In this document: in pieces, positions 31,994 through 60,768 of the stretch
Position numbering within the stretch: the stretch's first letter is position 1
Layout: each line of letters starts with the position of its first letter
Translations under genes and position numbers: made by a program
Notes under the pieces: model-generated
Seen by the model: the letters and a program-made list of their open reading frames with translations, nothing else
Database searches by the model: none
Told to the model about the DNA's origin: nothing
Origin: a virus
IMG/VR virus record: IMGVR_UViG_3300032087_005129
DNA: 64,000 nucleotides
Direction: 5' to 3' (one strand)

Positions 31994-33594
31994 CAGTGGA
32001 AAAATATTTCTTTGAAAAAAATGAACACGTTCTTCAATCAAGCATCAATGTTTTTTTTGAAGAACTTCTTGATATGTCTCAAGATGAATTTCGGCAGTGG
32101 GTGATTGACTATCGTAAAACTATGCTTGAGTCTTGGGATAGATACGGTTGCCCGCCTCGATCTGGTGCAGACGAAAAGAAAATTGTAAAGTCTTTCAACT
32201 CATTGTCATCGCACCCTGTTCACAAGTTTGAATACACAGACAAACTTGGCTGTTCGTTCGGTAAAAAGAACGATGTTATTCTCAACACAGCGAGAGCAGG
32301 CACAGAAGTTGATCAATTCTTTCCGACTATGATGAAAGCAAGAATCAACTACAACATCAAAAGCGATGGTCACTCTGTATATGACATGTTTAACGATGAT
32401 AAGTTTCTTGAGAGAATGGTCAAGGGTAGTCAACGACATTTCAAACGAGATAGTTTCTATCACTACAGCCACACAATGAAACTTGGTGATCCATCAAACA
32501 TTATTAGTGCAGATAGTGGTTTTGATTTCTGTGAGAAGTGTTGTCAAAACAAAAAACTCATGGAGTCAATGGGTTACGATTATTGGATTAGTGAAAAAGA
32601 AGAGTCTGAAGGATTGTCTACAGGCTATTATCAAATCGATCAATCAAAGCAACTCTCTCTGAGTGCTGAACAAGTCAAAGTATTGTATGATCGAGGTTGC
32701 TTTACAGAACGAAACATTTCTAATATTGATGTGAATGATTTGAAAGCCGATCACGTTTACATTCTTCGTTTATTCAAACTTGGTCACAAGGTGTTTCCGA
32801 AAGCGTTTACTGCATTCAAGATTGGTTACATTCAAGTCGCAGTAAACTTTCCGCCTATGACTGCAAAGTATCTCTATGAAAGGTTCACGGAACATGTCAA
32901 AGATCAAGAAACTATTCGAATTTATGATCCGTCATCGGGCTGGGGCGGTCGTATTCTTGGTGCTATGTCCGTACGGGATGATCGTCGGATTCACTATATT
33001 GGCACAGATCCTAATCCAGAAAATCAGATCCCGAAAGAAGGCATAAGTCGCTACGACTATCTTGCCAACTTCTTCAACGAAAATACATATCGTGGCAATG
33101 GTGTATTCAGTCACTCGAATACATTTGAGACATTCGATGAGTGTGCCGAAGACATCAAGAACAATCCAGACTTTCAGAAGCACAAGGGTAAACTTGATCT
33201 TGTATTCACATCGCCCCCATACTTCAACCGTGAGGGCTACGCAGATGACGCTAAACAGTCGTATCAGCGTTATCCAGGCTATCAAGGGTGGGTAGACGGG
33301 TTCTTGCGACCAACGCTTGAGACGGCGGTTGAGTATCTGCGTCCGCAAAGATATCTTCTCTGGAACATTGCTGACATTCTGATGGGTAAAGAGTACATGC
33401 CACTCGAAGAAGACTCGAAGAAGATTCTTGAATCTCTCGGTATGGAGTACAAAGGTTTTCTTAAGATGGCAATGGCATCAATGCCTGGTCAAAACCGATT
33501 AGATGAAAACGGTATTCCCAAGTGCAAGAATTATTGTCAAGTGAAGGGGCAGTACCTTAAGTACGAGCCAGTGTTTGTTTTCTGGAAACCTTAA
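31990..33594 (+). CDS. DNA amino-methyltransferase (N4-C/N6-A type) with long N-terminal extension
   Basis: YDPSSGWGGR SAM motif, YIGTDPN, FTSPPYFNRE catalytic motif. Confidence 0.8.
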   Translation: MTVEKYFFEKNEHVLQSSINVFFEELLDMSQDEFRQWVIDYRKTMLESWDRYGCPPRSGADEKKIVKSFNSLSSHPVHKFEYTDKLGCSFGKKNDVILNTARAGTEVDQFFPTMMKARINYNIKSDGHSVYDMFNDDKFLERMVKGSQRHFKRDSFYHYSHTMKLGDPSNIISADSGFDFCEKCCQNKKLMESMGYDYWISEKEESEGLSTGYYQIDQSKQLSLSAEQVKVLYDRGCFTERNISNIDVNDLKADHVYILRLFKLGHKVFPKAFTAFKIGYIQVAVNFPPMTAKYLYERFTEHVKDQETIRIYDPSSGWGGRILGAMSVRDDRRIHYIGTDPNPENQIPKEGISRYDYLANFFNENTYRGNGVFSHSNTFETFDECAEDIKNNPDFQKHKGKLDLVFTSPPYFNREGYADDAKQSYQRYPGYQGWVDGFLRPTLETAVEYLRPQRYLLWNIADILMGKEYMPLEEDSKKILESLGMEYKGFLKMAMASMPGQNRLDENGIPKCKNYCQVKGQYLKYEPVFVFWKP

Positions 33595-34634
33595 CCCAAC
33601 TCATCTGGATCGTAAGGGTACATATAGTCGCTCAGATCATCAGGTGGTGGATCTTCACCCAATAGATATCTGATTAGAACACCAAATGGACCGTCATCGT
33701 TTTCGAATTGTGGCGCTGTGAAGTTTTCATAGAAACGTGTAAGGTCACGATACAACTCATCTCGAACGTCGCTAGGCATATCTACATTGTCTAGCAATTC
33801 AACTAAATTGCTAAACATATCTGTAAGTTGTGTTTGATATCTAATCATGTTTTCAAGAACACCGAGAATGTCGCCTTGTCTTATAGACAAGATAAGACTT
33901 TCACGAATGCCTTCAATGGCCTGTGACATTTGGGAAGCATCGCCTGGTAAACCAGAGAGTATAGTTTGAATGTTAGAGATGTAACTTAAAATCTCATCGT
34001 AATTGTCTGGTCGAGGTTGAAGATTCATAAAGGAATCTAAAAAATCATCCAAAGCAGCATTGTTCATAATAAAACTATTCCACCTTTGATCGACATCAAA
34101 ACTTATTTCCCAATTTACTTTAAGATTAAGTTCGTCATAACGTACACCAATACCATATCTCAAAGCAAGATATTGTAATAGATTTTCTTCGCCCATATCA
34201 CTATATTGCAACAGTATTCTAAAAATACTTTGTCCATCACCCACATTTGCAGGAACATCAGGTGAAGCAAAATCTAAGGCTCTTATGAAACGAAGAAGAT
34301 CATTGAGTAGTTGACTGCTAACTGATGGGGAATCCATTTGATTTGGATTTAAAAATTTAGAAAACTGCCGAAAGAATGCCGTCTTGATCGCACTATCTGG
34401 TTGATCTTGTAGAATAGTAGCAATCAGTTCTACCATGTCACGAAAGAAATCGCTTTGTGGAATTGTTATGTCAATTTCTGGAATAGGAACAAACTGTCCG
34501 GCTGGGGTTCTTCCTATTTTTGATGGTTTTGCTCCAGGACGAGGACGAATTGGTGTTGGTTTATCACCAAAAAATCTTCTCGGTGGTGGTATCATCTTTT
34601 CTTGTAAAAGCAATAGTCTTTGTTTCCAATGCAT
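33591..34634 (-). CDS. Helical paralog family member 1 (MHWK leader), candidate head cargo
   Basis: MHWKQRLLLLQE followed by a Pro/Arg-rich segment; clearly similar to 34661-35653. Confidence 0.75.
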   Translation of the reverse strand: MHWKQRLLLLQEKMIPPPRRFFGDKPTPIRPRPGAKPSKIGRTPAGQFVPIPEIDITIPQSDFFRDMVELIATILQDQPDSAIKTAFFRQFSKFLNPNQMDSPSVSSQLLNDLLRFIRALDFASPDVPANVGDGQSIFRILLQYSDMGEENLLQYLALRYGIGVRYDELNLKVNWEISFDVDQRWNSFIMNNAALDDFLDSFMNLQPRPDNYDEILSYISNIQTILSGLPGDASQMSQAIEGIRESLILSIRQGDILGVLENMIRYQTQLTDMFSNLVELLDNVDMPSDVRDELYRDLTRFYENFTAPQFENDDGPFGVLIRYLLGEDPPPDDLSDYMYPYDPDELG

Positions 34635-34660
34635 AGTTATGTTCCTAATAAATGGTAATA

Positions 34661-35653
34661 TTATCTGATAATCTCAAACTCAGGTGGCAAGTCTTCACCC
34701 ATTAGATATCTAATTAGAGCACCGAATGGTGTGTCAGGATCCCCAAATTGTGGCGCCGTAAAGTTTTCATAGAAAGTTTCTAAATTACGAATTACTTCTT
34801 CTCTAACGTCGGCGGGTAAATCTACGGTGTCAAGTAGATCAACCATATCACTCATCATGTCTGTAAGTTGTGCGTGATACCTAATCATATTTTCTAGAAT
34901 GCCAACTACATTACCTGAGTTGATAGATTCAAGAAGTTGATCTCGTATCACTCTCATCGCATCTGCATTTGCTCCTTCACCTCCAAGACCAAGTAGTATG
35001 CTTTGAAGATTGCCAAGTTCGTCAAAAATGTATCTTGGTGGTTCTGGTTCAATGCCTGCAAGATCCTCCATAATTTTGTTAAATGGACCATTTTCTCCGA
35101 TCCAACCCATCCAATCTCTGTACACATCAAATGTTATTTGAGCATTAATTTTGATATCGAGTCTTTCGACGGTGAGTCCGTAACGCAAGGCAAGAAACTG
35201 TAGTAGTTCTGCTGGATTCATATCGCTGTAACTGGTTATTAATTCAAGAAGTCTTGTTGGGTTTCCTAGATTTACTTGGACATCTGTGCCAAAATCTCCT
35301 AAAAGTCTTAGGTGTCTTAGAAGGTCATTTAATTGTTGACTGGTAATTTCTGATGAAGAGCCAGTGGATTTTATAAATTCAGAAAACTGACGGAAGAACG
35401 CCGTTTTTATTGGACTGTTTGGTTGATCTCTATAAATTTGAGCAATCAAACGAATCATGTCCCCAAAGAAACCACTTTGAGGAATTGTAGTGTCAATATC
35501 TGGAATAGGAACAAACTGGCCAGTTGGGGTTCTTCCCAATTTTGGTGGTTTTGGTCGAGGACCAGGACGAATCGGTGTCGGTCTTCCACCAAAATTTCTT
35601 GGTGGTGGTATCGTTACTTCTTGTAGTAGTAGTAGTCTTTGTTTCCAATGCAT
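34661..35653 (-). CDS. Helical paralog family member 2 (MHWK leader)
   Basis: Identical 12-aa leader; shared IKTAFFRQFS, LALRYG, LENMIRY, FYENFTAPQF. Confidence 0.75.
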   Translation of the reverse strand: MHWKQRLLLLQEVTIPPPRNFGGRPTPIRPGPRPKPPKLGRTPTGQFVPIPDIDTTIPQSGFFGDMIRLIAQIYRDQPNSPIKTAFFRQFSEFIKSTGSSSEITSQQLNDLLRHLRLLGDFGTDVQVNLGNPTRLLELITSYSDMNPAELLQFLALRYGLTVERLDIKINAQITFDVYRDWMGWIGENGPFNKIMEDLAGIEPEPPRYIFDELGNLQSILLGLGGEGANADAMRVIRDQLLESINSGNVVGILENMIRYHAQLTDMMSDMVDLLDTVDLPADVREEVIRNLETFYENFTAPQFGDPDTPFGALIRYLMGEDLPPEFEIIR

Positions 35654-35655
35654 AG

Positions 35656-36027
35656 TTATAATCCTATTTGATCACCAATATTTATTCCAATTGTGTCAGC
35701 AACTCCTGAGTTTAGTTCTATTGCGTACATGATTGGTCTGTCAATTGGGTAGTCTGATTGTGTTCGATGATACATGGTTTGTTTGTCAACGACGTAGCCG
35801 TTTGAGTCAAGGCCAAGAATATCTAAATCCATTTTGCAGTTTTTCATCGTGAAACTTCTTGGTTGCTCTTCAGGAAAAACAAAAAGCATACCTCGATTCT
35901 TTGGCATACTTTTTCTAAACATTAAACCGAGTCTTTGCGACGTATCTGTAAGTGCAAGATCAAGAATAAAGTCATAATTCTTAATCTTCATCAAAACTTT
36001 TTTAAGTGGTTTAAAGTAAGATTTCAT
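35656..36027 (-). CDS. DUF192 family protein
   Basis: RLGLMFRKSM...GMLFVF...FTMKN..LDI...YAIELNSG...IGD. Confidence 0.85.
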   Translation of the reverse strand: MKSYFKPLKKVLMKIKNYDFILDLALTDTSQRLGLMFRKSMPKNRGMLFVFPEEQPRSFTMKNCKMDLDILGLDSNGYVVDKQTMYHRTQSDYPIDRPIMYAIELNSGVADTIGINIGDQIGL

Positions 36028-37091
36028 TATATGATATATTCTAAATTTCGAATAAACTTCAACAGTGTAATTATTTGCATTAGTGCATTTAGAGTAAATG
36101 AATCTAAATTACTATCTTTTGCGGGAATCAATTGACCAGTTTTAAGAGATATACGAAAATGCCCCCGGTCTTCTAGTATTTTAATCAAATCATCAACATC
36201 ACCTCCGCTGTTAACCCACTCTGCATATTGATTGCCCAGACCTGCTTCAAGAAAATTACTAAACATGTCATTTCTTCTGATGATTGTCAATGCTGAATCA
36301 TAATTGAAAAATCTTCGTCTTAAATTGTCAATATCTTCTTCGGTAAATCCTAAATCTAAAAGTTCTTGTGGATATCTATCTGAGCCAGTGAATGATCCTC
36401 GTAATAAGGCTTCTATTAACTCTTGCATTGTAAAATCACCTAGAATATCAAAGTTTATATCTCGTCTTATCGTTCCGAAGAAAAGGTTTAAAATAAAACC
36501 AAACTCACCATCTTCATTAATAAAACCTAAACCTCCTGAATACAATTCTAGGTAAGAAAGAAGTTGTGAAATAAAGTCTAGATTAGAAGAAGGATTAATC
36601 AAAAACAAAAGACGTTTTAATAGCAAATCAAACTCTGCTACCTGTGCCTTTGTCATATTCATACCAGCAACAGCATACGGAGATGGCTTGTCGGTTGCCG
36701 CCCTTGTTGGCTGTTTCACAATAAGTTCTATAAGTATCTCTGCAACTGCATCGGCTCTACCGGCATCAAAAGAAAGTGCTAATGCAATCGCCCGCAACTG
36801 CTCTGGTGTAAAAAGTTGTCCAAGACGAACAGTAATTTCTGGTTCACCTACACCAAGCGCCACTAGTCTTTCTAAAAATGTTGTACCATTAATACTGTAT
36901 CCAAGAATAACCCAATAAGGAGAATTTGAACCACCTGAACCATCTGGCATTGACATTCTTTCTGGAGGAGCAATGACTGGTGAATCAGTCGCAAATTTTT
37001 TAGTTGCTTGTGTTTTGGTTAAACCAATTCCAGTATCTTTTGCGATCTGATTTTTAATTATTTGCTCTAATAGTTTTTTTGCTTTTTTCAA
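36027..37091 (-). CDS. Helical protein, distant paralog family member 3
   Basis: TTG start with AGGA RBS; leader ending LLEQ; INFDI motif. Confidence 0.6.
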   Translation of the reverse strand: MKKAKKLLEQIIKNQIAKDTGIGLTKTQATKKFATDSPVIAPPERMSMPDGSGGSNSPYWVILGYSINGTTFLERLVALGVGEPEITVRLGQLFTPEQLRAIALALSFDAGRADAVAEILIELIVKQPTRAATDKPSPYAVAGMNMTKAQVAEFDLLLKRLLFLINPSSNLDFISQLLSYLELYSGGLGFINEDGEFGFILNLFFGTIRRDINFDILGDFTMQELIEALLRGSFTGSDRYPQELLDLGFTEEDIDNLRRRFFNYDSALTIIRRNDMFSNFLEAGLGNQYAEWVNSGGDVDDLIKILEDRGHFRISLKTGQLIPAKDSNLDSFTLNALMQIITLLKFIRNLEYII

Positions 37092-37134
37092 AACACAAGT
37101 CCTATTTTTTTATTTTTTTGTATCTTAGTTATTA

Positions 37135-38223
37135 TCAAAATTCTCGAACTTTTTTGTAGTGTCTAAGATAAAACTTTAGAATTAGTGTTAGTTGTCCATT
37201 GATTGTTTCGGTAGGTCTTCTATCATTCACGAAAAATTCGGGCATTACGTTTGCCACGATTCTATCAATTTCTTCACTTGGAAGATCTAAAGATTCAAGA
37301 TACGTTTTAAGTTGGGTACTCACATGCTGTTCATATTGAGCAAATATGGCTTGAAGTTCTGCCATTTTTGCCATCAATGCAGTTAACTCAAAGTCTTCCC
37401 CATTAGCAAACCCAAGTTTAATTTCTTCAATCACTGTTCGAAGTTTTGTTAAAAGTTCTTGGTCTCCACCAAAAAATCTGTTAAGTCCTCCTGATCTCAC
37501 TATTTCTCTTAGTCTTCTGCGAGTCACATCAAAGGTTATGTACGGATTTATTTCTTGAATTGCCGCTACCATTGAATTCACAATGTCGAGTTCCCAATCC
37601 ATTAAACCAAAACTAGATCCACCATACAGTTTTGAGCCTTGAAGGCCAAACAATTCCAGTATATCTTCAAAAGAGTTGTCTTCTGAAAATATACCTCTAA
37701 GTCTGTTAATCCACTCACCTTGAGAGCCTCTTAACTCATCAAAAAGTGTTGAAACTGGCAAAAATCTACCTCTAGCAAGCATATCTGATGGGCTAAGCAT
37801 ACCTCTTTGAAACTTCAGTATTGTTTCAATTATTAGATACCAACTTGGAATTTGTCGTTGACCTGTTTTACTTGTAAAAAGGTCTAAAATTCTATTACCT
37901 AATTGTGTATTTCCAGCATACTTTTGAACCCATCTTTGAATATTTTTTGACCACTCTCTTGGTGGAAAAAAGGGACCGTCGCCTAAGATTTCGAGCAAAT
38001 CATCAAGAGCCCTTCTTGGTGGGGGAATCATTATTGCAGGAAGGTTTCCACCTGGAAGTGGCATAAGAAATTCCATTTCACCTGGCTCTCCCATACCTTT
38101 CATACCTTTACCCATGCGAGGTTTAGTCATACCGATCTCAGCAGGTCTTCCGCCTAGATCCATTCTTGCTTGCTCAAAGAGCCAGTTTGTGTATTGTTCT
38201 TTTGATACGTCTTCAGGTCTCAT
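37135..38223 (-). CDS. Helical protein, paralog family member 4
   Basis: Leader ending LFEQ; IPPPRR, ITFDV, LESLDLPSE motifs shared with members 1 and 2. Confidence 0.65.
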   Translation of the reverse strand: MRPEDVSKEQYTNWLFEQARMDLGGRPAEIGMTKPRMGKGMKGMGEPGEMEFLMPLPGGNLPAIMIPPPRRALDDLLEILGDGPFFPPREWSKNIQRWVQKYAGNTQLGNRILDLFTSKTGQRQIPSWYLIIETILKFQRGMLSPSDMLARGRFLPVSTLFDELRGSQGEWINRLRGIFSEDNSFEDILELFGLQGSKLYGGSSFGLMDWELDIVNSMVAAIQEINPYITFDVTRRRLREIVRSGGLNRFFGGDQELLTKLRTVIEEIKLGFANGEDFELTALMAKMAELQAIFAQYEQHVSTQLKTYLESLDLPSEEIDRIVANVMPEFFVNDRRPTETINGQLTLILKFYLRHYKKVREF

Positions 38224-38512: not shown

Positions 38513-38520
38513 TATTTATA
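38513..38520 (-). promoter_or_regulatory. Late promoter TATAAATA (minus strand)
   Basis: tatttata on the + strand; variants AATAAATA at 39132-39139 and CATAAATA at 39752-39759. Confidence 0.75.
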
Positions 38521-38573: not shown

Positions 38574-39107
38574 TTACATAGGTGGTTGCATTCCGCCACC
38601 AAAACCGCCGCCTGGTCCTTGTTGAATGCCAGGTCTGTTTGCTTGACGCGAAGGACGAGCAAAGTTTGTTCCTGGTCTAATCGTTGAACGTTGAGGTGGT
38701 CGAGGTCCTGCTGGTTGACCACCAGGATTCGGCACTCCAAAGAATTGACCAAGAGCATCAAAGTCAAATTCAACTGTTGGGGGGTTTGTTCTTGCTACAA
38801 CAAGGAATGGTGAGCCATCCATGATATTAATGAAAACGCCACTTGGCAATTGAAGAAGACCAGGAGAACCCTGTCTTATTGTATAATTTATTAAGGCACC
38901 ATATGTGTTGTTTTCACCAAGAAGGCTCAGAATAAACGTATAGTCGTTGAAGTCGAGTGTTCCGTTTCCACCAATTGTTGTTGTTGTGCCACCAGGTGCA
39001 CCACCACCGAATTGTTCTGAAAGATGTGTTGTCTCTTCAAGACCGGCAGCGTATCCTTTTGCATACGCTTCATTAATTCTTTTTTGTAATCGATTATCTC
39101 TGCTCAT
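38574..39107 (-). CDS. Hypothetical protein, EAY..GY leader, Pro/Gly/Arg-rich tail
   Basis: RINEAYAKGYAAGLEE-TTHLSE leader; GGAG RBS. Confidence 0.65.
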   Translation of the reverse strand: MSRDNRLQKRINEAYAKGYAAGLEETTHLSEQFGGGAPGGTTTTIGGNGTLDFNDYTFILSLLGENNTYGALINYTIRQGSPGLLQLPSGVFINIMDGSPFLVVARTNPPTVEFDFDALGQFFGVPNPGGQPAGPRPPQRSTIRPGTNFARPSRQANRPGIQQGPGGGFGGGMQPPM

Positions 39108-39754: not shown

Positions 39755-40861
39755 TTATGTTTGGCGATCACCTTTTGCAACAGCATCACCAGATCTGTTG
39801 AAGTTGATCATTGTTTGTACTTCAAAGAATTCTTTTGGCAGTTTACCCTTCAAAACATCGATTAACACAGAGGGAACTCTAAGTTTACAGTCAAATGGCC
39901 TTTTGCCAACACGAAGAGATTCGTACTCTTCTTTGCCAACAGATTCGAGTGAATAACGATTAAGCAATTCTGAACTAAACACAAAGTCATCTGGTGTGTA
40001 ATCAATCTCTATGATGATTGGTATTCCTCTTTTTAGAAAAAGATCAACCATCGCAGACTGATATGATTTTTTGTCACGATTGATCAAAGCCTTGAAGTAT
40101 TTCTTGAACAAAGGCATCGATGCTTTTCCTGTTGGTGTCAAAATTGGATATTCTTTCTTCAATTGCTGCAACTCATCCCACCGCCCATAAGATTGATGAA
40201 ACATTTTCCACAAACGCTCTCCTGCATTTGGTAAGTGTGCCTTATTAGTGTTGAATTTTGCTATGGTGTTTTCGTTGTGAACACGAAAAGCGTTATCGAT
40301 GTTTACAGAGGCACCTGCGATTGCACCAGAAAACTCTAGAGCAATTTCTTCTGATATAGTCCAACTTTCAAGTTCTCGTTTCGGTGTGTATCTAAATTTT
40401 TTGACTGCGGTGTTGCCTTCGATTTTGAACTTTGATGGATCACGAAAAAGTTTCATTACATTTTTTCTCATTTTTTCATCGACGCCATATTCTGACATCA
40501 CAATATTTTCCATATTGATACCACGATACAAAACTTTTGATTCTGGAATCAAGTCTTGAGGAAAAACATTTCTAAACTTTTGAAATATGTTGAAGAATGA
40601 AGATGGAAATTTCAAATCGTTGTGACGAACCCATATGTTCATAACATACTCGAAGTAGTCTTCAATGGGTGTGTTTCTTTCTTTGTCTCTTTTGAGTTCA
40701 CCAAAAAAGATTTTACCAAATGCTTCACGAAAATCTTTCTCCGTTTTGATCAGAGATAAAACTTCTTTTGCGGCTTTACTATCCCGAATCTTTGTTAATG
40801 GACTTGCATAGTCGGCTTCAGGATCATAATCATCAGTTAGATAATTGAAGAATTTTTTCAT
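39755..40861 (-). CDS. Putative ADP-ribosyltransferase (R-S-E type) with CTS-like leader
   Basis: VLYRGI ... ESWTISEEIALEFS ... EEYESL; leader MKKFFNYLTD. Confidence 0.6.
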   Translation of the reverse strand: MKKFFNYLTDDYDPEADYASPLTKIRDSKAAKEVLSLIKTEKDFREAFGKIFFGELKRDKERNTPIEDYFEYVMNIWVRHNDLKFPSSFFNIFQKFRNVFPQDLIPESKVLYRGINMENIVMSEYGVDEKMRKNVMKLFRDPSKFKIEGNTAVKKFRYTPKRELESWTISEEIALEFSGAIAGASVNIDNAFRVHNENTIAKFNTNKAHLPNAGERLWKMFHQSYGRWDELQQLKKEYPILTPTGKASMPLFKKYFKALINRDKKSYQSAMVDLFLKRGIPIIIEIDYTPDDFVFSSELLNRYSLESVGKEEYESLRVGKRPFDCKLRVPSVLIDVLKGKLPKEFFEVQTMINFNRSGDAVAKGDRQT

Positions 40862-41187
40862 CGCATTTTCTTTTTGAGATTTGTGAACTTTCTTTTGACT
40901 GATGGTGTCTTCATTTCTTTTTCAACGGCTGTGATTGCATCGACGAACAAACGAACGATACCATCGTCGCTCATTTCTCGTGCAAGGTAATCTGTATCAC
41001 CTTTCTTTTCAAGCCGATCAGCAAGATTGCGAAGTCTTTTTGCGACCTGACTGTTCAATGTTTTGAGTGTCATTGAACCATATCCACGAACAAGAATGTT
41101 AGGATTGTCTACGTCACCGATGTTGCTGAAGTCTATTCTTCCTGCTGGTTGACTTTGTTCGTAGAGGTAGTTGTAGAAGTCTTTCAT
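40858..41187 (-). CDS. Small protein with CTS-like leader
   Basis: MKDFYNYLYE start. Confidence 0.65.
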   Translation of the reverse strand: MKDFYNYLYEQSQPAGRIDFSNIGDVDNPNILVRGYGSMTLKTLNSQVAKRLRNLADRLEKKGDTDYLAREMSDDGIVRLFVDAITAVEKEMKTPSVKRKFTNLKKKMR

Positions 41188-41504
41188 TTGTTCTTTTCTT
41201 TCGTTATCTTTTTCATCTTTTCAATGTACTTTCGATACACAGCGGCTTCTTCTTTCTTGCCCATCACCTTTGCTCTTTGTTCCATGGCGATTGCTGCTTG
41301 AATTTTATGAGCATGTGTTCGATTTGATGACTCAATTTTTTTGACTGATGCTTCGGCGGTTTTTACATCTTTAAACCCAAGACCGTGAATTGTTCCTTTT
41401 GGATTTTCGTCAGTGTAAAGATCGCTGTGAGTATCAGGGTCTTGATTCTTACGAGTCTTGGGTATACGCTTGCCTTCATCAAAATATTCTAGAAATGATT
41501 TCAT
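41184..41504 (-). CDS. Small basic protein with CTS-like leader
   Basis: MKSFLEYFDE, then HSDLYTDENPKGTIHGLGFKD domain. Confidence 0.7.
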   Translation of the reverse strand: MKSFLEYFDEGKRIPKTRKNQDPDTHSDLYTDENPKGTIHGLGFKDVKTAEASVKKIESSNRTHAHKIQAAIAMEQRAKVMGKKEEAAVYRKYIEKMKKITKEKNK

Positions 41505-41514: not shown

Positions 41515-44199
41515 TTATTTTTTTACGAAGTCTGATCTTTTCTTTGGTGGTCGACCTTTGATCTCATAGCCTCTGAGCAATTTTAACTCTATTTTTGCTT
41601 GTGTTGAAGCATGTGGAATGTCAGCCAAAGCAATAACTATCAAGTCGTTGTTAGAGTAGTTACTGATATAGCGAAGCATTTGCTTTACTGCACCAGGCAA
41701 ATCTTCTTTGTCACCTCTAAAGCCACCCTTGTAACTTTCATTGCCATACGCTTTACTTAGTTTCTTAATGTCTTTGTCGGTGTACAAATCTTTTTTGCTG
41801 TAGTGATCACTTTCATTGATGCTTTCATCCTGCGCACGTCTTACAGCATCCTCATGATCCCGGCGAATTTTTTCGTAATCTACATCAAAGAAATTCTTTG
41901 GAATTTTAATTGGTTTACGGTCTTCATCAGCAATATCTCGTATAAACTTTGCTTTTTTGTGTGCTTGTCTGGCCGTTTTTTCAATTTCTGGAGTTGCCTC
42001 GATTCTACGAAATTTACCACCAACATTTTTCAACACAGTTCCTAATAGTTCAATATGTTTGAGTGAAACTCCACGAACAGGCTTGTATTTAAAGGACACT
42101 TTTCTTCGTTGTATTGTGTAGTCTTTTTCTGACCTTACAATACCATAATCTTTAAGAAAATTAGCATATCTTTTTGGGTTATGCCAAGTATCTAACTCAA
42201 CTACAAAGGTGCTTGCTTTTTGCTCATTGATGCCCATGCTTTCCATGATATCATCAACATCAAGATACATGTCGGTTTGTGGATCGTAATACTTACCAGC
42301 CTTTCTATCATAGTAATAAATCAGACCCGTTTTCTTGGTGCGATACGGTCCTTCAAGACCTTCTCTTTCACGATTTGGGAAACGCTCGCGGTCGATAGGT
42401 GATACACGATTCTTGTTCTTGTATCTTCTATAGTGATCTCTTGCAGACATCTCATCAATTTGTAGGTCCTCATGCAATTCACCTTTGTATTGCTTTGCCA
42501 ACCTTTCAATATCGTTTCTCTCGTAGTCGTTTGGGTGCATGATGACTTGAACAATTTCTTCAGGACTTCTATCCCCGTCATATCGGTCTACTTCACTTGC
42601 GAGTTTATCTCGCATGATTCGTCGCATGAAGGCACCGGCTTTCATTGGGTTTTTAAATTTAAATTCTATTGTGCTGCCTTCATCAAGTTGCACAGACTCA
42701 CTGAATTCAGAAAATGAAACCTCGCTCACAGCCGAGATGCCGAATCGTCGTATCTCTGAACTAAACACTGCACCAGCAAACAACTTGTTTGCTATTTGAT
42801 GTGCTTTTTGATTATTCTTAAAGGAAACATAATAGGTATCTTCGACAGGTCCTTTTTGATTTCCAGCAACAAAGTGGAATTTTATGCCTGCTTTTTTAAG
42901 TTCTCGTTCGAACTCTTTTCGTTTTTTGGCATAATGTGCTTTGTCTTGTTTACTGGCATACTTGCCTGTCTTCATAAACTTATCATTGAACTCAACAATA
43001 TTAGCCTGCTCAAGTTTCATTACCTTATTCATCGCCTTAAGCAAATCTTTAGGTTTGAATTTATGAACGTTGTCTGCTCTTGCTTCGTAGTCACCATAGC
43101 CACTGAGGTTCATGTCATTCAGAACACCTGCAATCTCTTGCTTGGCTTTCTTGTTTAACCCCTTGATCATGCCTTGTATGTCACGGGCTGCTAGTCCTTC
43201 AAATTGAATTGGGGGACCACCAGGATTAACAAGTCCAGGTGCTGGTCTTCGACGACCAATTTCTCGACGGCCAGGACGATATTTTCCTGTTTTTTGTTTC
43301 TGAGCAACTTGAGGTAAAAATGGAAGAGTTGGATTTGTAAGACCTCCACCAAGAGGTCCTTGCTCATCAACATGCACAGATTCTCGATAAAAATCAGGAA
43401 CATTATTTTTTTTGAGAACCTGACCAACTTTTGCACCAGGAAGATTATCAACCATCTGACCAGGCTGCACTAATTTACGGGCTTGTTTTTCTGACAAACC
43501 AACACGAATGATGCTGCCGTATCTATCTACGATTGCAAAACTTTTCTTTCCATAGTAAGCAGAACTATTTTTTGGTGGGTTGTAAACTTTTGATTCATCA
43601 AGTTTCTTAGAACCTTCATAGATGGTATCGACCAATTTCAAGCCGTGCTTCTTGAGCAACTTCTCGAACCTCGGCCAATTTCCTCTTTCCTTACGAAATG
43701 TGAACACAGCCTTTTTCTTCCGAGATTGAAATACTATGTTATGAAGGCCAAGAAAACCTGGTAGTTTCTTAAGTTTGGGATCACGAGTAATACTCTCATA
43801 TGAGTTTTGATCAGCGTCTACAACAAACTTGACAGTCACATTATTTTCGTCAATCTGAACACCTTCTTTGATTGCGATGAGTTTAGCAGTTTTGCCACCG
43901 CCCAAGTCTTGTGTGTCACCAAGTTTCTTGATCTTTGGCCCCATCATCATATCAGCCACGGGGTGAACTTGAAAACCAAGTTCTCTACCACCATCAATAA
44001 AGTAAAAACCATCACCTGGTTTGGCGTGCTTATCGAAGTTTTTTAACATTTTTTTGTATTGTTTTTCAAAGCCAAACTTTTTGAGTTTTGCTAAAAAGAC
44101 TCTTGAGTCCATGTCGAAATCTTTGAACGCGGTTTTCACGGTTTCGTCGATGTGGTGATTTTTGCTTTCATTGAGTGTTTGTTTCATCTTCCAATGCAT
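41515..44199 (-). CDS. 894-aa modular protein; putative gp21-processed polyprotein of about 10 basic domains
   Basis: MHWK leader; recurring linkers EGVQIDE, EGSKKLDE, ESVHVDE, EQANIVE, ESVQLDE, EDLQIDE, ESMGINE, ESINE. Confidence 0.7.
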   Translation of the reverse strand: MHWKMKQTLNESKNHHIDETVKTAFKDFDMDSRVFLAKLKKFGFEKQYKKMLKNFDKHAKPGDGFYFIDGGRELGFQVHPVADMMMGPKIKKLGDTQDLGGGKTAKLIAIKEGVQIDENNVTVKFVVDADQNSYESITRDPKLKKLPGFLGLHNIVFQSRKKKAVFTFRKERGNWPRFEKLLKKHGLKLVDTIYEGSKKLDESKVYNPPKNSSAYYGKKSFAIVDRYGSIIRVGLSEKQARKLVQPGQMVDNLPGAKVGQVLKKNNVPDFYRESVHVDEQGPLGGGLTNPTLPFLPQVAQKQKTGKYRPGRREIGRRRPAPGLVNPGGPPIQFEGLAARDIQGMIKGLNKKAKQEIAGVLNDMNLSGYGDYEARADNVHKFKPKDLLKAMNKVMKLEQANIVEFNDKFMKTGKYASKQDKAHYAKKRKEFERELKKAGIKFHFVAGNQKGPVEDTYYVSFKNNQKAHQIANKLFAGAVFSSEIRRFGISAVSEVSFSEFSESVQLDEGSTIEFKFKNPMKAGAFMRRIMRDKLASEVDRYDGDRSPEEIVQVIMHPNDYERNDIERLAKQYKGELHEDLQIDEMSARDHYRRYKNKNRVSPIDRERFPNREREGLEGPYRTKKTGLIYYYDRKAGKYYDPQTDMYLDVDDIMESMGINEQKASTFVVELDTWHNPKRYANFLKDYGIVRSEKDYTIQRRKVSFKYKPVRGVSLKHIELLGTVLKNVGGKFRRIEATPEIEKTARQAHKKAKFIRDIADEDRKPIKIPKNFFDVDYEKIRRDHEDAVRRAQDESINESDHYSKKDLYTDKDIKKLSKAYGNESYKGGFRGDKEDLPGAVKQMLRYISNYSNNDLIVIALADIPHASTQAKIELKLLRGYEIKGRPPKKRSDFVKK

Positions 44200-44229: not shown

Positions 44230-44260
44230 TATTTATTCAAACGCCAAAATCGAATAAATA
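44230..44260. promoter_or_regulatory. Back-to-back divergent late promoters (AATAAATA on both strands)
   Basis: tatttattc-N13-gaataaata inverted repeat between divergent MHWK/MHYL genes. Confidence 0.65.
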
Positions 44261-44344: not shown

Positions 44345-44707
44345 ATGCATTATCTACAGAAACAACTTCTTGAAGAAGAGAAGAAAAAAGCCAAACTGAA
44401 TGCTGGTCATTGCAAGACCGAAGGAAAGAAAAAGACTAAACTGAATGCTGGTCATTGCAAGACTGAATCTGAAAAACTTGATGAGCAAAAAGGTCAAAAG
44501 TTTAACTTTGCAAGAGCAAGAAAAGTGTTCGAGAAGCACTGGCGCGAAATGGAAAGAAAAGTTGTCAATGAACTTGTTCAACCATACGAGGGTCGAGGTC
44601 CTGTGAATTATGATCTCAAAGCCGAACGTCAAGTCTCTGACTACTTTGAAACCAACACAGAAGATCTTCTTGATTACATCACAGAGAGATTCGAAGACCT
44701 CAACTAA
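44345..44707 (+). CDS. Hypothetical protein, MHYL leader, internal repeat
   Basis: MHYLQKQLLEE; KLNAGHCKTE twice; ESEKLDE linker. Confidence 0.7.
   Translation: MHYLQKQLLEEEKKKAKLNAGHCKTEGKKKTKLNAGHCKTESEKLDEQKGQKFNFARARKVFEKHWREMERKVVNELVQPYEGRGPVNYDLKAERQVSDYFETNTEDLLDYITERFEDLN
44393..44463 (+). repeat. 26-bp direct repeat, 45-nt period
   Basis: aaactgaatgctggtcattgcaagac at 44393 and 44438. Confidence 0.9.
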
Positions 44708-44723: not shown

Positions 44724-45005
44724 ATGAACTTTAAAGATAAACTACAAGAAGCATTCGAAGCAGGCTATCTTCAAGGTCTGAGCGAGTCTACTACTATTGA
44801 CACCTCATCATATCGCAGAAGTCACGGTAAGTCACCAAATCCAAATGAGTCAGGTGGCTGGTCTTTTGGCACGAAACCTTTCAGTCGATCTGATGATGAG
44901 ATTGTGTATGAATCGCCCAACAAGATGCCATATAAAGAGGCGAAAAAAGAAGCAGAAAAGATTGCAAAGAAAAAAGGTCTGAAAAAGATCTACGTTCAAT
45001 CGTAA
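44724..45005 (+). CDS. Small protein, LQEAF..GY leader
   Basis: MNFKDKLQEAFEAGYLQGLSE then YRRSHGKSP...GGWSF domain. Confidence 0.7.
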   Translation: MNFKDKLQEAFEAGYLQGLSESTTIDTSSYRRSHGKSPNPNESGGWSFGTKPFSRSDDEIVYESPNKMPYKEAKKEAEKIAKKKGLKKIYVQS

Positions 45006-45014
45006 GGAACAAAA

Positions 45015-45404
45015 ATGAACTTTGAAGACAGACTACAAGAAGCATTTAAAGAGGGCTATCGTCAGGCTATCAACGAGCAAAAGAAACCTCTTGGTCCGAG
45101 GAGGCCTGGTGCTTTACTCAAAAAGGCTTATAATCCCAGAAAGTATTTCACTGCACATGTCGAAAAAGAATTAGTTAGTGTGTATAAAAAACTCATGGCT
45201 CGCCTAAAAAGTGATTATGAAAAGAAAGCGTTTGAACAAACTTTTCCTTTTGAACTTGCTGATGAAATAAAGGAAAGAGTCGAGAATCTTTTCGATGGTT
45301 CTTCTATGAGAGATGAACTGATTGATATGTATCGCAATGACTTCAAGAAAAGGGATAGACTCAAGGATTATGACAATAGGGTAAGACATGGATTTCGTAG
45401 GTAA
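45015..45404 (+). CDS. Small protein, LQEAF..GY leader
   Basis: MNFEDRLQEAFKEGYRQAINE. Confidence 0.7.
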   Translation: MNFEDRLQEAFKEGYRQAINEQKKPLGPRRPGALLKKAYNPRKYFTAHVEKELVSVYKKLMARLKSDYEKKAFEQTFPFELADEIKERVENLFDGSSMRDELIDMYRNDFKKRDRLKDYDNRVRHGFRR

Positions 45405-45413: not shown

Positions 45414-45764
45414 ATGAAAAATCTAGAATCATCAATTCAAAATATTCTCAATGAAGAGTACATTGAAGAAAACATCGACAAAGTAAAAGATCTCTATGAC
45501 AATCGAAACATTGTTTCTACACTTAAAGAGGGTGATAGTATCTTTGTTGGTTTTGAATACATCAAACACGATGGATCATCAGAAACAAAGGGGAAGATTT
45601 TTATTGTAGATCAAGTCGAGACATTAAGGAATGGCATAATTAGGGTTTTTCTTGATCATCGAACTTCTGACGATTACGTTCTATTCCTTGATAAAAAAGG
45701 CATGTTGGTTTTTCGGAATCCAAATGGTATGAGATTAGTAGTAAGTAGTATTTCAAAGAAATGA
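45414..45764 (+). CDS. Small protein, MKxLES leader
   Basis: MKNLESSIQNILNE-EYIEE. Confidence 0.7.
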   Translation: MKNLESSIQNILNEEYIEENIDKVKDLYDNRNIVSTLKEGDSIFVGFEYIKHDGSSETKGKIFIVDQVETLRNGIIRVFLDHRTSDDYVLFLDKKGMLVFRNPNGMRLVVSSISKK

Positions 45765-49328: not shown

Positions 49329-49335
49329 CACCTAG

Positions 49336-51249: not shown

Positions 51250-51253
51250 TTAC

Positions 51254-51281: not shown

Positions 51282-51312
51282 GAATCTAACACAAGAAAAG
51301 GAGTCATACAAC

Positions 51313-51528: not shown

Positions 51529-51542
51529 AAGGAGTCCTACAC

Positions 51543-53820: not shown

Positions 53821-54288
53821 TTATTTTGGTTGAATCAAGTTCACGGTGAGTTGAATGAAATCATTTGACTCTTTGAGATTGGCTTTGTTTTGCCATTCAG
53901 CAGATTCTTTATCACTTTTGATCGGACCACCTTTTGCCCAAGTATGACATGATCTTGCAGAGTGACATTTGAAATGGTGCATCCAACAATAGCCAAGTTC
54001 ACCATCATCGTCGAAGGTGTCACCAGGCAAACAATCTTTCATTCGAGGTGAGATATCGAAAGCAACGCAGTTTCCACACAAAGATTTCTTGGCAGCCTTC
54101 TCAGTTGTCTTCCAATACTTTGCGATCTTCTCCCAGTAGTCACCAGGCTCGTCAACATTGAGAGGACCATAGTTGTACTTCTTGATCGTCGCATCACGAT
54201 TCTTTGTGTTGAGTTCTAGATCTTTTGCAGCAGGAGGACACTTGAGATCTTTTTCTTGCTCTAGCAGCAGACGTTGTGAAATGTGCAT
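53821..54288 (-). CDS. Cys-rich metal-binding protein with MHxxQRLLLE leader
   Basis: MHISQRLLLEQE; CGNC...C...GYC..HHFKC...C..W; ACTAAATA upstream at about 54323-54330. Confidence 0.7.
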   Translation of the reverse strand: MHISQRLLLEQEKDLKCPPAAKDLELNTKNRDATIKKYNYGPLNVDEPGDYWEKIAKYWKTTEKAAKKSLCGNCVAFDISPRMKDCLPGDTFDDDGELGYCWMHHFKCHSARSCHTWAKGGPIKSDKESAEWQNKANLKESNDFIQLTVNLIQPK

Positions 54289-58070: not shown

Positions 58071-58078
58071 TATAAATA
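58071..58078 (+). promoter_or_regulatory. Late promoter TATAAATA
   Basis: Exact consensus 5 nt before the ATG at 58084. Confidence 0.8.
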
Positions 58079-58083
58079 CTGGC

Positions 58084-59535
58084 ATGGCAGAATATCAAGG
58101 CAAAGAAGTAGAATTAGATAATCCTTTTCGCTTACCGAAAGGCTCAGACAAAAAGTTTGGCGTCTACGTTAAGAACAAAAAGGGTAATGTGGTCAAGGTT
58201 GAGTTTGGTGATCCAAACATGGAAATCAAACGTGATGACCCAGAAAGACTAAAGAACTTTCGTGCCAGACACAACTGCGATCAAAAGAAAGACAAGACAA
58301 AAGCAGGGTACTGGTCTTGCAAATTCTGGGAGAAGGGCAAGTCTGTGTCTGATCTCCTCAAAGACGAAAAAGAAGGATGTGGCTGCGGCTGCAATAGTTG
58401 TATGAAAGAACAAAAGATTCGAACACAGGTTGAGTTTGACACTCTCAAAGACGCTATAAAGAGCGTGAAGTTTCATCCAACAAGAGACAAGGGGCGTGAA
58501 GTCGCAATCTATCTAATTCCAGCATCAAAGAGAACGATGCGTACCTCAGCAGAAAGGCCGTCAGGAAAACAAGTGGGTTCTGTCGATTTCCTGAAAAAGG
58601 GAGTATACACCCCAGTCACCTTACCAAATGGGCCTTTCGAAAAGATTCTCAAGGCAAAAGGTGCAAAGCGTGTTGCCACAGTAAAGAACGTAGATGGCAA
58701 AACCAAAGTCTTCAAAGAACAAAAACTCAAAGCAACACCACAGAAAAAGTTTCGTGGTCGTTCGCCTGGTGTGAAGAAGACAACAGGTCACAGCCTACGT
58801 TTCAAAGTAACCTCTAAACTAGCACAGAAGATGCAAGAGATTCTGTCTGGCGAAGACAAGGCTGAACTCAAGAGATACAACCGTCTTGTCACAAGCACCG
58901 ACATTGACGGTGACGAAGTTGTTCTAACCTTTGGCTCTGCTGGGGCAAGAACAAAGGTGACACAGATGCTTAAAGAGTCGCAGGTAAACGAGACACGTTA
59001 TCCTAATGCAGCAGCCGCTCTAAGAGAACTTAAAGAATCTCATAGAGGTCTAGATGTTGAATACAGCAGAGGAACGCTTTTTGTTGAGTCTTCATCTTTA
59101 ACCATAGATACCATCACAACAAGAAACGTGGTTGCAAACACCGTTAAACGAATTTTTGAAAGAAATGGTGTTGATGGTATTAAAGTTGTGTTTGAAGACT
59201 TTAGACTAGAGGATCTGCAACTTGCACAATCAAGAGCAAGATTCTTTTCCGAAAAAAAAAATCCTAAAGACACAAAGTATTATACCAAATCGGGCAAGAT
59301 AAAGAAATCACCAGAAGACAAAGAAACTGGTTTGCCTAAAAAGTATGTTTCAAGAATGACAAAGGCTGATGCAAAACAAAAAGCAGCCGAAATCAAAGCA
59401 AGAAAGAAATTTGGCAAAGATGATCCTCGCAGATACGAACCAACCGATGTTGATAAGAAGTATGCAGGCACAGGTCAAAAATCAAAGCACACTAAGAAGT
59501 ATGAAAAAATGTTTGGAAAGAAGGGTAGCAAATGA
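58084..59535 (+). CDS. Modular basic protein (putative polyprotein; N-domain DUF6321-like)
   Basis: FGDPNM...NFRARHNC...AGYWSC domain; junctions CMKE, VFKE, LKE-SQVNE, FFSE. Confidence 0.7.
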   Translation: MAEYQGKEVELDNPFRLPKGSDKKFGVYVKNKKGNVVKVEFGDPNMEIKRDDPERLKNFRARHNCDQKKDKTKAGYWSCKFWEKGKSVSDLLKDEKEGCGCGCNSCMKEQKIRTQVEFDTLKDAIKSVKFHPTRDKGREVAIYLIPASKRTMRTSAERPSGKQVGSVDFLKKGVYTPVTLPNGPFEKILKAKGAKRVATVKNVDGKTKVFKEQKLKATPQKKFRGRSPGVKKTTGHSLRFKVTSKLAQKMQEILSGEDKAELKRYNRLVTSTDIDGDEVVLTFGSAGARTKVTQMLKESQVNETRYPNAAAALRELKESHRGLDVEYSRGTLFVESSSLTIDTITTRNVVANTVKRIFERNGVDGIKVVFEDFRLEDLQLAQSRARFFSEKKNPKDTKYYTKSGKIKKSPEDKETGLPKKYVSRMTKADAKQKAAEIKARKKFGKDDPRRYEPTDVDKKYAGTGQKSKHTKKYEKMFGKKGSK

Positions 59536-59810
59536 ACTTTTTCGAAGGTAAAATCAAAGGTCTAACAAACAAAGCAAAAGCAACTGGTGTTCCATACAAC
59601 ATTCTAAAGAAAGTTTATGATCGTGGTATGGCAGCATGGACTGGTGGTCACAGACCAGGCATCGGTCAACACCAATGGGCGTTTGCAAGAGTGAACTCTT
59701 TTCTAACTGGTGGTAAAACACAGAAGACAGCCGACAAAGACTTGTGGGCTAAGGTGCCTGAGGGTGCTAAAAGAGGTGCGAAAAAGGGTGCAAAAAAAGG
59801 TAAGAAGTAA
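59532..59810 (+). CDS. DUF5824-like small basic protein
   Basis: MNFFE leader; KKVYDRGMAAWTGGHRPG..QWAFARVNSF. Confidence 0.6.
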   Translation: MNFFEGKIKGLTNKAKATGVPYNILKKVYDRGMAAWTGGHRPGIGQHQWAFARVNSFLTGGKTQKTADKDLWAKVPEGAKRGAKKGAKKGKK

Positions 59811-60481
59811 TGTACTGGAAACAAAACAAAGATTATTTGAGTGAAAGTTATCTCGCCGAAAAAATTCCACCCCCGTTTAGAAGACCAGATTTTGATTCAA
59901 AACCTGGTCCAGCAAAAAAGCCTTGGTGGAAAAGATTGTTTGGTGATGGTAGACCGGTGAGAAGAACACCGCAGATCACAACGGCAAGCGATAATGATCG
60001 ACTTTTCGAATTATTTAGGCAACTCATGAGGGAAACAAATAGAACAGCAAGAAGAACCCGTTCCCTTGCGTATGAATGGTATCTTGTTTTGCGAGAATTA
60101 ACTAGCAGCAACAGTCAATCATGGCAAAGATTTCTTCGGGGGTTTGAACAGACAAACTGGCAATTTCAAAATCTTCCAGACGAAGTTCTTGGTTTTATAA
60201 ACAATGTGAATGATTATTTTGCAAATCTTCGTTCGGCACTTTCTCAATTTGCTAATGGTGAAATTTCATATGCCTCATTACATGAACAAATCGATGAAAT
60301 CATAGAACTTTTTGAAGAATTGAGAGGTGGTCGTTATTTCGATAGCAACCAAATGGCAAATGGTTATAATGTACCAATTTGGATGAGAGATGTAGATCCT
60401 GAAGTTTATGAGTACATTAGTCAGTTGTATGTGCTTCTAAGAGAACTTAAAAGAATTGACCAAAGAAACTTGTCAAGATGA
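59810..60481 (+). CDS. Helical paralog family member 5 (MYWK leader)
   Basis: MYWKQ..YLSE-SYLAE-KIPPP; WYL and FANGE shared with 37135-38223. Confidence 0.65.
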   Translation: MYWKQNKDYLSESYLAEKIPPPFRRPDFDSKPGPAKKPWWKRLFGDGRPVRRTPQITTASDNDRLFELFRQLMRETNRTARRTRSLAYEWYLVLRELTSSNSQSWQRFLRGFEQTNWQFQNLPDEVLGFINNVNDYFANLRSALSQFANGEISYASLHEQIDEIIELFEELRGGRYFDSNQMANGYNVPIWMRDVDPEVYEYISQLYVLLRELKRIDQRNLSR

Positions 60482-60768
60482 ATCTAAAAAGTTTTAAAGA
60501 CCACTTCAACGAAGCCTGCTGGGATGGCTACAAACAAGTTGGTATGAAAAAGAAAGGCAAACGCATGGTACCAAACTGTGTGCCAGAGTCTTCAAAAACC
60601 AACGAAAGAAAACTTACTAAAGTCGAACTCAAAGATCGTGAGAAGTATGTCAAGAAGTTGAAGCCAAAACTCAAAGACTTCAAAAAAAGATATGGCGACG
60701 AAGAGGGCAAAGGCGTGATGTATGCCGTAGCCACGAACTTGGCAAAGAAAAAATCTAAAAAAGACTAG
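60478..60768 (+). CDS. Two-module small basic protein with CTS-like leader
   Basis: MNLKSFKDHFNE-ACWDGY...PNCVPE-SSKTNE-RKLT... Confidence 0.7.
   Translation: MNLKSFKDHFNEACWDGYKQVGMKKKGKRMVPNCVPESSKTNERKLTKVELKDREKYVKKLKPKLKDFKKRYGDEEGKGVMYAVATNLAKKKSKKD

Follow-up and report, generated by a model that had tools for sequence, protein, structure and literature searches.

The internal proteins of phage T4 are brought into the prohead by a capsid targeting sequence (CTS) at the N-terminus, MKTYQEFIAE. Mutagenesis of the T4 CTS assigned targeting to positions 4 and 7 and processing to positions 8 and 10; an Asp at position 10 prevents cutting, not targeting, and the equivalent 10 residues are sufficient for targeting (PMC9026906). 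That the T-even phages have diverse internal proteins sharing only a CTS is already known (PMC3012670). T4 Alt, a head-packaged ADP-ribosyltransferase, is processed by gp21 at I-T-E-6 and L-T-E-619 (PMC5694885). Here we describe a 64,000 nucleotide stretch of viral DNA, IMG/VR record IMGVR_UViG_3300032087_005129 (in the following, the window), in which many late-type genes start with short N-terminal leaders ending in Glu. We think it likely that these leaders are T4-type capsid-targeting propeptides, and that the system has here grown to about 15-18 genes, with leaders of several families.

The source of the window is a T4-like marine myophage that has not been cultured. The major capsid protein (MCP) encoded in it shares 61-63% identity with the MCPs of the Pelagibacter phages Mosig and HTVC008M and of the Methylophilales phage Melnitz, and 59-60% with those of cyanomyoviruses. 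Close relatives of the window are found in Tara Oceans and other marine metagenomes; no near-identical DNA was found in the phage collection searched. All counts of leaders and open reading frames (ORFs) given here cover the window, with its 87 ORFs, and the region past its end was read from the close relative L179.

Fifteen robust leader-bearing ORFs are located at 33.6-60.8 kb, together with 3-5 weaker ones, and their leaders form four families, classes A to D, on otherwise unrelated proteins (Table 1). Class A leaders start at 41504(-), 41187(-), 40861(-) and 60478(+), class B leaders at 34634(-), 35653(-), 44199(-), 44345(+), 54288(-) and 59810(+), class C leaders at 44724(+), 45015(+) and 39107(-), and class D leaders at 45414(+) and 45761(+). 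The N-terminal 10-mers of the 87 ORFs were compared with internal 10-mers of the same proteins in 300 resamplings. Thirteen leader pairs score at least 25, where 0.52 are expected and the maximum among the resamplings is 3. By BLASTP the protein bodies behind the leaders are unrelated, except in the paralogue pair 33591/34661, and the alignment of the class C neighbours 44724 and 45015 is confined to residues 1-21.

An initial annotation of this DNA had listed about 20 late ORFs with leaders of four classes in front of mostly unrelated sequences. Each of the leaders it named is present at its gene start, and the unrelatedness of the sequences behind them was borne out. The four families also stand, with the exception of the doubtful MNFFE at 59532; 12 of the 13 high-scoring pairs belong to its classes. 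Its total was somewhat high, with 15 robust cases and only 3-5 further, weaker ones. Among the looser leaders that it took to end in L-x-E, the one at 38223 does so, weakly, with L-F-E; those at 7001 and 12905 end in V-S-E and F-L-E, and those at 13085 and 37091 hinge on GTG and TTG starts, respectively.

Table 1. Head genes, leader-bearing genes and associated features of the window.
Coordinates	Strand	Feature	Leader or cut site	Supporting match
7001..8536	+	Acidic ORF of 511 aa, located between the gp68-like gene and gp21 of the head module	class A-like, ending V-S-E (weak)	
8551..9195	+	gp21-type prohead serine protease, presumed leader-removing enzyme		Pfam Peptidase_S77 124.8 bits (cut-off 27); phrog_207 E 6e-80
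9236..10939	+	gp22-type scaffolding core protein, presumed docking partner		Pfam T4_CASP 192 bits, residues 316-560
10968..12311	+	Major capsid protein gp23	L-K-E (residues 44-46), predicted site of propeptide removal	Pfam Gp23 from residue 61
33591..35653	-	Tandem paralogues 34661-35653 and 33591-34634	class B, MHWKQRLLLLQE in both	
36027..37091	-	TTG-start ORF	short, L-L-E	
37135..38223	-	362-aa member of Pro-rich helical family	weaker, residues 1-17, ending L-F-E	
38574..39107	-	177-aa Gly/Pro-rich protein; own late motif	class C-like, residues 1-25; I-N-E and L-E-E sites	
39755..40861	-	Predicted R-S-E ADP-ribosyltransferase	class A-type, MKKFFNYLTD, Asp at position 10	
40858..41187	-	109-aa basic protein	class A, MKDFYNYLYE	
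41184..41504	-	106-aa basic protein (mature isoelectric point 9.9)	class A, MKSFLEYFDE	
41515..44199	-	894-aa basic polyprotein	class B, MHWK...L-N-E	
44230..44260	.	Divergent late-promoter motif pair, one AATAAATA per strand, in front of the two main cargo operons		
44345..44707	+	120-aa Lys-rich protein, heads plus-strand cargo operon	class B-like, MHY...L-L-E-E	
44724..45404	+	Two genes, 44724-45005 and 45015-45404	class C, ending L-S-E and I-N-E	
45414..46699	+	Two genes, 45414-45764 and 45761-46699	class D, residues 1-14, ending L-N-E and I-N-E	
53821..54288	-	Lone gene, Cys-rich 155-aa domain	class B-like, MHISQRLLLEQE	
58071..60768	+	Late operon: TATAAATA, then the four genes below		
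58084-59535	+	Basic 483-aa protein	without leader	
59532-59810	+	DUF5824 protein	doubtful, 5 aa, MNFFE	
59810-60481	+	Class B-like gene	class B-like, two sites	
60478-60768	+	C-W-x-G-Y-K domain	class A-like	

Class A is in register with the T4 CTS: both have M-K at positions 1-2, positions 4 and 7 are aromatic, position 8 is hydrophobic and position 10 is acidic. Classes B-D have only the [LI]-x-E end and the length in common with a T4-type CTS. We scanned IMG/VR for the class A leader type with the pattern MK.F..YITE. Among the matches listed, 101 of 126 lie at the very first ATG of ORFs encoding 40 aa or more, and such leaders head at least 48 unrelated protein families. The five large contigs with this leader all encode a gp21 homologue (50-65% identity). 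One marine contig has three consecutive genes starting with MK[ST]F.QYITE, one of them encoding an ADP-ribosyltransferase homologue, and the C-W-x-G-Y-K domain of 60478-60768 is found behind an MK.F..YITE leader in contigs L060 and L070. The largest cargo family behind this pattern is ligase-like, with a K-x-D-G motif (21 of 100 among the matches listed). Syn9 gp183 (L222:1272-2234) is a member of the same family. Its neighbor gp186 (L222:4972-5700) has a CTS-like start and, at about residue 140, a second copy inside the protein, L-L-T-F-K-Q-F-N-E, a possible sign of a polyprotein with two modules.

Indirect experimental support for a class A leader type leading to the virion comes from the cyanophages. 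Sullivan et al. 2010 (PMC3037559) detected the core cytidylyltransferase T4-GC190 in purified S-SM1 virions; in the passages searched, the paper makes no mention of a leader. Syn9 gp184 starts with MKKFSAFLSE, and the annotation of S-BM3 labels its own orthologue of this protein T4-GC_190. Of the seven orthologues that were read, five start with MKKFS.F[LI][ST]E or a near variant of it. S-RIM8, S-SSM4, S-SSM2 and B23 keep the leader, which in Syn9, S-RIM8, S-SSM4 and S-SSM2 has the form MKKFS.F[LI][ST]E followed by Ala. A close variant among the orthologues is MKKYLEFIIE, the leader of ACG-2014f (MAMRSFLTFLTE) stands behind a two-residue N-terminal extension, and the N-terminus of the S-BM3 protein is divergent.

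The class B leader is the best conserved part of its protein. In nine class B sequences, 51-89% identical overall, the leader is the only fully invariant 12-mer, whereas the 12 residues that follow are the least conserved part of the protein (25% invariant, with indels). The invariance extends over residues 1-9 and not the cut site alone. Since the Leu and Glu codons of the class B leader vary synonymously between copies while the amino acids are invariant, we conclude that the leaders are under peptide-level selection. Pairs of class C proteins diverge exactly at the cut site. In the orthologues of 38574-39107 the leader is kept and the segment after the site is altered by an indel, and a relative of 59810-60481 keeps the leader and differs past the second Glu.

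The common gene starts might instead be nucleic-acid features, such as recombination boxes for gene cassettes, translation-initiation signals or RegA-type operators. The tandem class B genes share 20 nt upstream, and a close relative encodes a RegA homologue. We nevertheless regard this explanation as very unlikely, given invariant amino acids written with synonymously differing codons, the wide differences in DNA between members of one class, a similarity that stops at the Glu codon and not at a fixed distance, and the recurrence of the peptide motif across phages with MCPs only ~60% identical. Chance together with ordinary paralogy, in which the N-terminal similarity is left from duplication and the rest has diverged fast, is the least probable account of all. 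It applies to 33591 and 34661, which are true paralogues, but hardly to 13 high-scoring pairs (0.5 expected) with no detectable similarity in their bodies, nor to leaders that are most conserved next to residues that are least so. It also does not explain how leaders come to be swapped on one cargo family across phages.

This swapping is seen in the 155-aa cargo domain of 53821-54288, which has 1892 homologues. Across phages the domain follows at least five leader types, among them class A, class B, W-R-x-F-L-x-E, M-R-L-x-E-I-V-E and a basic type, and it is also fused behind the domain of 41184-41504 (as in P0139) or a DUF5824 domain. The homologues of ORF 39755-40861 likewise carry several other leader types. 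Class C leaders are found on other cargo in the IMG/VR contigs L183, L188 (three genes), L189 and L191 and in the close relative L179; the MCP of one contig with class C on other cargo is 65% identical to that of the window.

The initial annotation had read the leader classes as several zip codes, that is, as distinct addresses. This part of the proposal is not supported, since the leaders of the 155-aa family vary from phage to phage, with class A, class B and further types among them. Because one cargo family carries different leaders, these are better seen as interchangeable variants of one signal than as distinct destinations, and we lean towards the four classes sharing one permissive docking site. 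As four families occur side by side in one phage that has an enlarged scaffold, separate addresses stay in play, as an unlikely reading. The leader families would then form a multi-channel code, in which each class, perhaps through mimicry of a propeptide from gp23, gp21 or another core protein, docks to a different partner in the enlarged scaffold core. The docking would determine how many copies enter, where in the head they lie or in which order they are ejected. Such a code, which we consider rather improbable, would make it possible to read the injected proteomes of environmental T4-like phages from metagenomic sequence, including ligase-like enzymes, nucleotidyltransferases, ADP-ribosyltransferases, kinases and many uncharacterized proteins.

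Many homologues of the 155-aa domain (P0085-P0203) have the leader M-K-L-[IL]-x-E-x-W-R-x-F-[LIV]-x-E, which is like residues 5-17 of the window's gp23 (10968-12311) and presumably also resembles the N-terminus of T4 gp23. Judged from this likeness, cargo leaders may imitate the propeptide of the capsid protein itself. For the leaders of the window, imitation of the N-termini of its own gp23, gp21 or ORF 7001 is not supported, with scores of 15-19 that lie within background, and is at most a speculation. A scan with the class D leader matched the N-terminal region of the gp21-type protease in the IMG/VR contig L201 (strand -, match start 12951), which reads M-K-K-L-E-S-G-I...V-N-E. Class D may accordingly be similar to the propeptide of the protease itself, although its likeness to the N-terminus of the window's gp21 is weak.

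The head module of the window provides the presumed partners of the leaders (Table 1) and also encodes a gp68-like protein. Residues 43-48 of gp23 form an F-L-K-E/A-A site, at the place where T4 gp23 is cut. The gp22-type scaffold, which has a late motif at 9201-9208, contains [LI]-x-E at a density of 0.041 against a background of 0.015 (2.7x). Based on the gp23 site and on this density, the T4 cut-site rule plausibly holds in the window phage. The scaffold further has ~300 additional N-terminal residues (9236-10200), rich in His, Met and Glu, before the T4_CASP domain. This extension is a candidate docking platform for an enlarged cargo set.

The [LI]-x-E end is the sole feature common to all classes, and one could argue from this that the leaders are pro-sequences, serving only to keep the proteins inactive or to mark them for cleavage, with head targeting residing in other parts or absent. 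We find this improbable. The cargo bodies have no common targeting feature, the equivalent 10 residues of T4 suffice for targeting, and residues 1-9 of the leaders are invariant as well as the cut site. Moreover, a protease confined to the prohead cannot reach substrates that are not targeted there.

The same kind of site recurs within the 894-aa polyprotein. It contains eight double-site linkers, each composed of [LIY]-x-E, 3-5 residues and [ILV]-[DN]-E. Residues 203-264, directly after an L-D-E, match the mature portion of the product of a separate class C gene in L188 (55% identity, E 1e-15). Since this alignment begins at the cut site, with L-D-E in the polyprotein and L-N-E at the end of the leader, the linkers and the leader ends are equivalent sites. 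No relatives of the class B protein or of the 894-aa polyprotein were found in IMG/VR; the class B protein is also present on a 154-kb contig. The class D leaders have a second site 5 residues downstream.

The eight linkers are scaffold-like, and gp22 is enlarged. It could thus be proposed that the leaders bring proteins into the prohead as components of assembly or of the core, like T4 gp67 and gp68. Such proteins would assist in building or sizing the head, and would then be cut into peptides and for the most part expelled, without delivery to the host. The acidic Pro-rich helical family (33591-38223) and ORF 7001, neither of them basic, would suit this role, and ORF 7001 lies inside the head module. 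We judge this alternative unlikely, though less so than the other three. Close relatives differ in which of these genes they have, and other T4-like genomes lack them; accessory cargo therefore fits better than core assembly parts. Furthermore, one cargo is predicted to be an ADP-ribosyltransferase and another, in a relative, a Zeta-type kinase, and the modules of the polyprotein are basic and of the size of folded domains. Each of the four rivals (nucleic-acid features, paralogy, pro-sequences and assembly components) explains less of the evidence than T4-type capsid targeting.

The mature cargo is mostly basic, with a median isoelectric point of 9.2 against 6.0 for the other ORFs and values of at least 8.5 in 13 of 18 candidates. 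Most cargo has no match among Pfam or PHROG families from which a function could be read. No Pfam or PHROG internal-protein family, and thus no counterpart of T4 IPI, IPII or IPIII, matches any candidate, so that the likeness to the T4 internal proteins is one of mechanism and not of descent of the cargo.

ORF 39755-40861 is predicted to be an R-S-E ADP-ribosyltransferase and a functional analogue of T4 Alt. Remote homologues number 74, and the Arg, Ser-x-Ser/Thr and Glu-x-Glu motifs follow each other in R-S-E order. An alignment of 41 sequences has R113, S166-W167 and E314 in every member and Y112, G114 and E312 in nearly every one (E312 in at least 90%). In an AlphaFold 2 (AF2) model with a predicted local distance difference test (pLDDT) of 73, a helical insertion of ~100 residues lies between the S-x-T and ExE motifs. 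When the model was compared with 48,161 chains using VIA-align, ranks 1-15 were all ADP-ribosyltransferases (Z 6.8-4.4), led by Vis (root mean square deviation 3.9, 139 residues aligned) and including C3bot2 (Z 5.5). Foldseek against PDB and BFVD gave weak Mod/Alt-like rows only. Sequence and profile searches of PDB gave nothing meaningful, and tblastn against cultured phages gave no match.

Based on these observations, the initial proposal of head-cargo addressing with gp21-type removal of the leaders is supported as far as sequence tests reach, by the register of class A, its co-occurrence with the S77 protease, the selection on the leaders and the Alt-like cargo. By analogy, classes B and D may be regarded as head leaders on account of their [LI]-x-E end, conservation and operon context. 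Core binding, cleavage, retention in the head and ejection are steps that we infer. In brief, the cargo genes would be transcribed late, and the leader of 10-25 residues would bind the gp22-based scaffolding core during prohead assembly, so that the attached protein is enclosed. The Peptidase_S77 protease (8551-9195) would then cut after the Glu of [LI]-x-E, often at two nearby sites, to leave the mature protein free in the head; in the 894-aa protein, cuts at the eight linkers would yield small basic modules. Finally, the cargo would enter the host with the DNA. Small basic domains would make up most of it, alongside an ADP-ribosyltransferase and, as seen in one close relative, a kinase of Zeta type.

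Several observations weigh against this interpretation. Only class A resembles a CTS that has been tested, and two of the class A leaders have Phe (F-x-E) instead of Leu or Ile at P3. The class A leader at 40861 ends in L-T-D, and Asp at P1 blocks processing in T4 (PMC9026906). A bare [LI]-x-E ending at residues 8-25 is frequent in the window (37% seen, 24% expected); since the tripeptide near the N-terminus is not rare, the evidence lies in the common leader families and not in the tripeptide. Scans of IMG/VR and metagenomes for the class B leader returned chance matches or the same family only, and a class D scan of IMG/VR gave mostly internal chance matches, with none elsewhere that was convincing. 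Unlike the internal proteins of T4, the tandem class B proteins and that of ORF 7001 are acidic. The match of ORF 39755-40861 to the ADP-ribosyltransferase fold is modest (Z 6.8), and the Pfam families of these enzymes match 0 of 41 members of its family. The late-promoter motifs described below are consensus matches only, and the lone gene 53821-54288 has no perfect late motif, only a version with one mismatch.

The late-promoter consensus HATAAATA occurs 16 times in the window, 2.6-fold more than the 6.2 expected, and 16 was reached in 0 of 100 shuffles. Sites are located upstream of gp18, gp20, ORF 4961 and gp22, and upstream of the cargo-operon genes starting at 44199(-), 39746(-), 39107(-), 38492(-), 35653(-), 44345(+) and 58084(+). 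These last seven motifs lie 12-91 nt upstream of the heads of cargo operons or of internal cargo genes. In the divergent pair at 44230-44260, one motif is 37 nt upstream of the start at 44199(-) and the other 91 nt upstream of that at 44345(+). The pair is therefore predicted to drive the two cargo operons that span 33.6-46.7 kb; a third cargo operon is found at 58.1-60.8 kb. The initial annotation had placed the leader genes downstream of (T/C/A)ATAAATA late promoters, which is correct for the operons that such motifs head and does not extend to each gene.

The tandem class B paralogues have a disordered stretch rich in Pro and Arg after the leader, followed by an acidic helical domain. In an AF2 model of the family residues 1-46 are disordered and the remainder is helical; neither an ESM Atlas neighbor nor a BFVD fold match was found for it. 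In the related ORF 37135-38223 the N-terminus is conserved in three relatives, and its operon lies behind TATAAATA at 38513-38520. The orthologues of 36027-37091 in two relatives (L044:2380-3498 and L048:2708-3826) have a class A-like D-F-Y-N-Y leader ending in L-L-E. As the window ORF has a TTG start and a different, shorter N-terminus than these relatives, its leader appears to have been replaced or lost. The protein of 41184-41504 matches the N-terminal part of phrog_727.

The cargo operons also contain genes of other kinds. ORF 39141-39746 (-) encodes 201 aa with an H-E-x-x-H motif and a sub-threshold SprT-like Pfam match; it has its own CATAAATA and no leader. The 90-aa protein of 38220-38492 (-), with its own TATAAATA, has I-Q-E at residues 8-10 followed by a transmembrane-like helix, and its first 60 residues are identical in relatives. 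In one relative (L046:91-3563) a class C gene is split, and a truncated 372-aa gene is followed by a 201-aa ORF. Comparison of such genomes indicates that the cargo island is structurally plastic between near-identical phages. In L179, in the region past the end of the window, a Zeta-toxin-family P-loop kinase (L179:13992-14819, -; Pfam 28.8 bits) lies behind GAATAAATA and has a two-part leader, class A-like and then class D-like. Its gene context and leader suggest a packaged kinase. Another class C gene, also behind GAATAAATA, is found beside it. Between the cargo island and the next region of the window, a block at 46995-51878 has ~50% G+C, compared with roughly 40% elsewhere, and contains genes for a 777-aa acidic-linker protein and an AAA-type ATPase. 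It looks like a horizontally acquired module.

The set of leader-bearing genes is unusually large. Two other marine T4-like genomes, with proteases 62-65% identical, show N-terminal similarity at background level (5 pairs against ~2 expected) and have only 2-3 class A genes each. With about 15-18 genes in the window, the claim of a greatly expanded set in the initial annotation holds against these two genomes. A strict class A match was found once in Syn9, at a gene start, and once in HTVC008M, inside an annotated gene on the opposite strand, and none was found in S-PM2 or Mosig. Classes B and D appear, from the scans, to be confined to the lineage of the window. The literature searched, mostly from outside subscription journals, yielded no account of marine T4-like phages with CTS-type leaders, of several leader families side by side or of a polyprotein with cut sites as linkers.

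Proteins injected by a phage act before phage gene expression, and those of T4 include anti-restriction and host-takeover factors. To our knowledge there is at present no way to tell which genes of uncultured marine phages encode injected proteins. If the leaders act as they do in T4, injected cargo can be recognized from sequence alone by an N-terminal motif of 10 residues. The class A form would then flag the 48 or more unrelated families among the matches listed from viral metagenomes, and would account for the cytidylyltransferase in cyanophage virions. Four coexisting leader families and a cut-site polyprotein make this phage, an extreme case, a good system for probing how permissive core docking is, and the leaders could serve as new tags that bring foreign proteins into capsids of the T4 type.

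The closest described systems share different parts of this arrangement. Many head-internal ejection proteins of the phiKZ-like giant phages SPN3US and 201phi2-1 (PMC5694885) have N-terminal propeptides that are removed after Glu by a gp21-related protease, include paralogues with identical N-termini and diverged bodies, and have extra sites inside the propeptides. Unlike the leaders described here, most of these propeptides have more than 100 residues, cutting follows [SAG]-x-E and the genomes exceed 200 kb; short interchangeable leader families have not been described for them. Cyanophage T4-GC190 has a class A-type leader and was detected as a so far unexplained protein of S-SM1 virions (PMC3037559). 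It is a single conserved gene per genome and not an expanded set.

Like T4 Alt, ORF 39755-40861 pairs an R-S-ExE ADP-ribosyltransferase fold, here predicted, with a short N-terminal head-type leader in a T4-like phage. The two differ in having no detectable sequence similarity, in size (368 aa, compared with the much larger Alt, whose mature form is 68.2 kDa) and in the helical insertion between S-x-T and ExE. As its leader ends in Asp, the window protein may be targeted and left uncut. Compared with the CTS-bearing internal proteins of T4, the window has at least 15 genes against three and four leader families against one. Many of its leaders have double or triple cut sites, which are reused as polyprotein linkers, some of its cargo is acidic, and the cargo has no sequence homology to the T4 families. 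The two systems nevertheless have in common a leader of 10-20 residues on unrelated, mostly basic proteins, with, in class A, positions 4 and 7 aromatic, position 8 hydrophobic and position 10 Glu. The cargo genes of the window would, judged from their promoter motifs, be late genes like those of T4. The two systems also share a Peptidase_S77 protease that cuts after Glu, as predicted for the window, and a gene set that varies between relatives.

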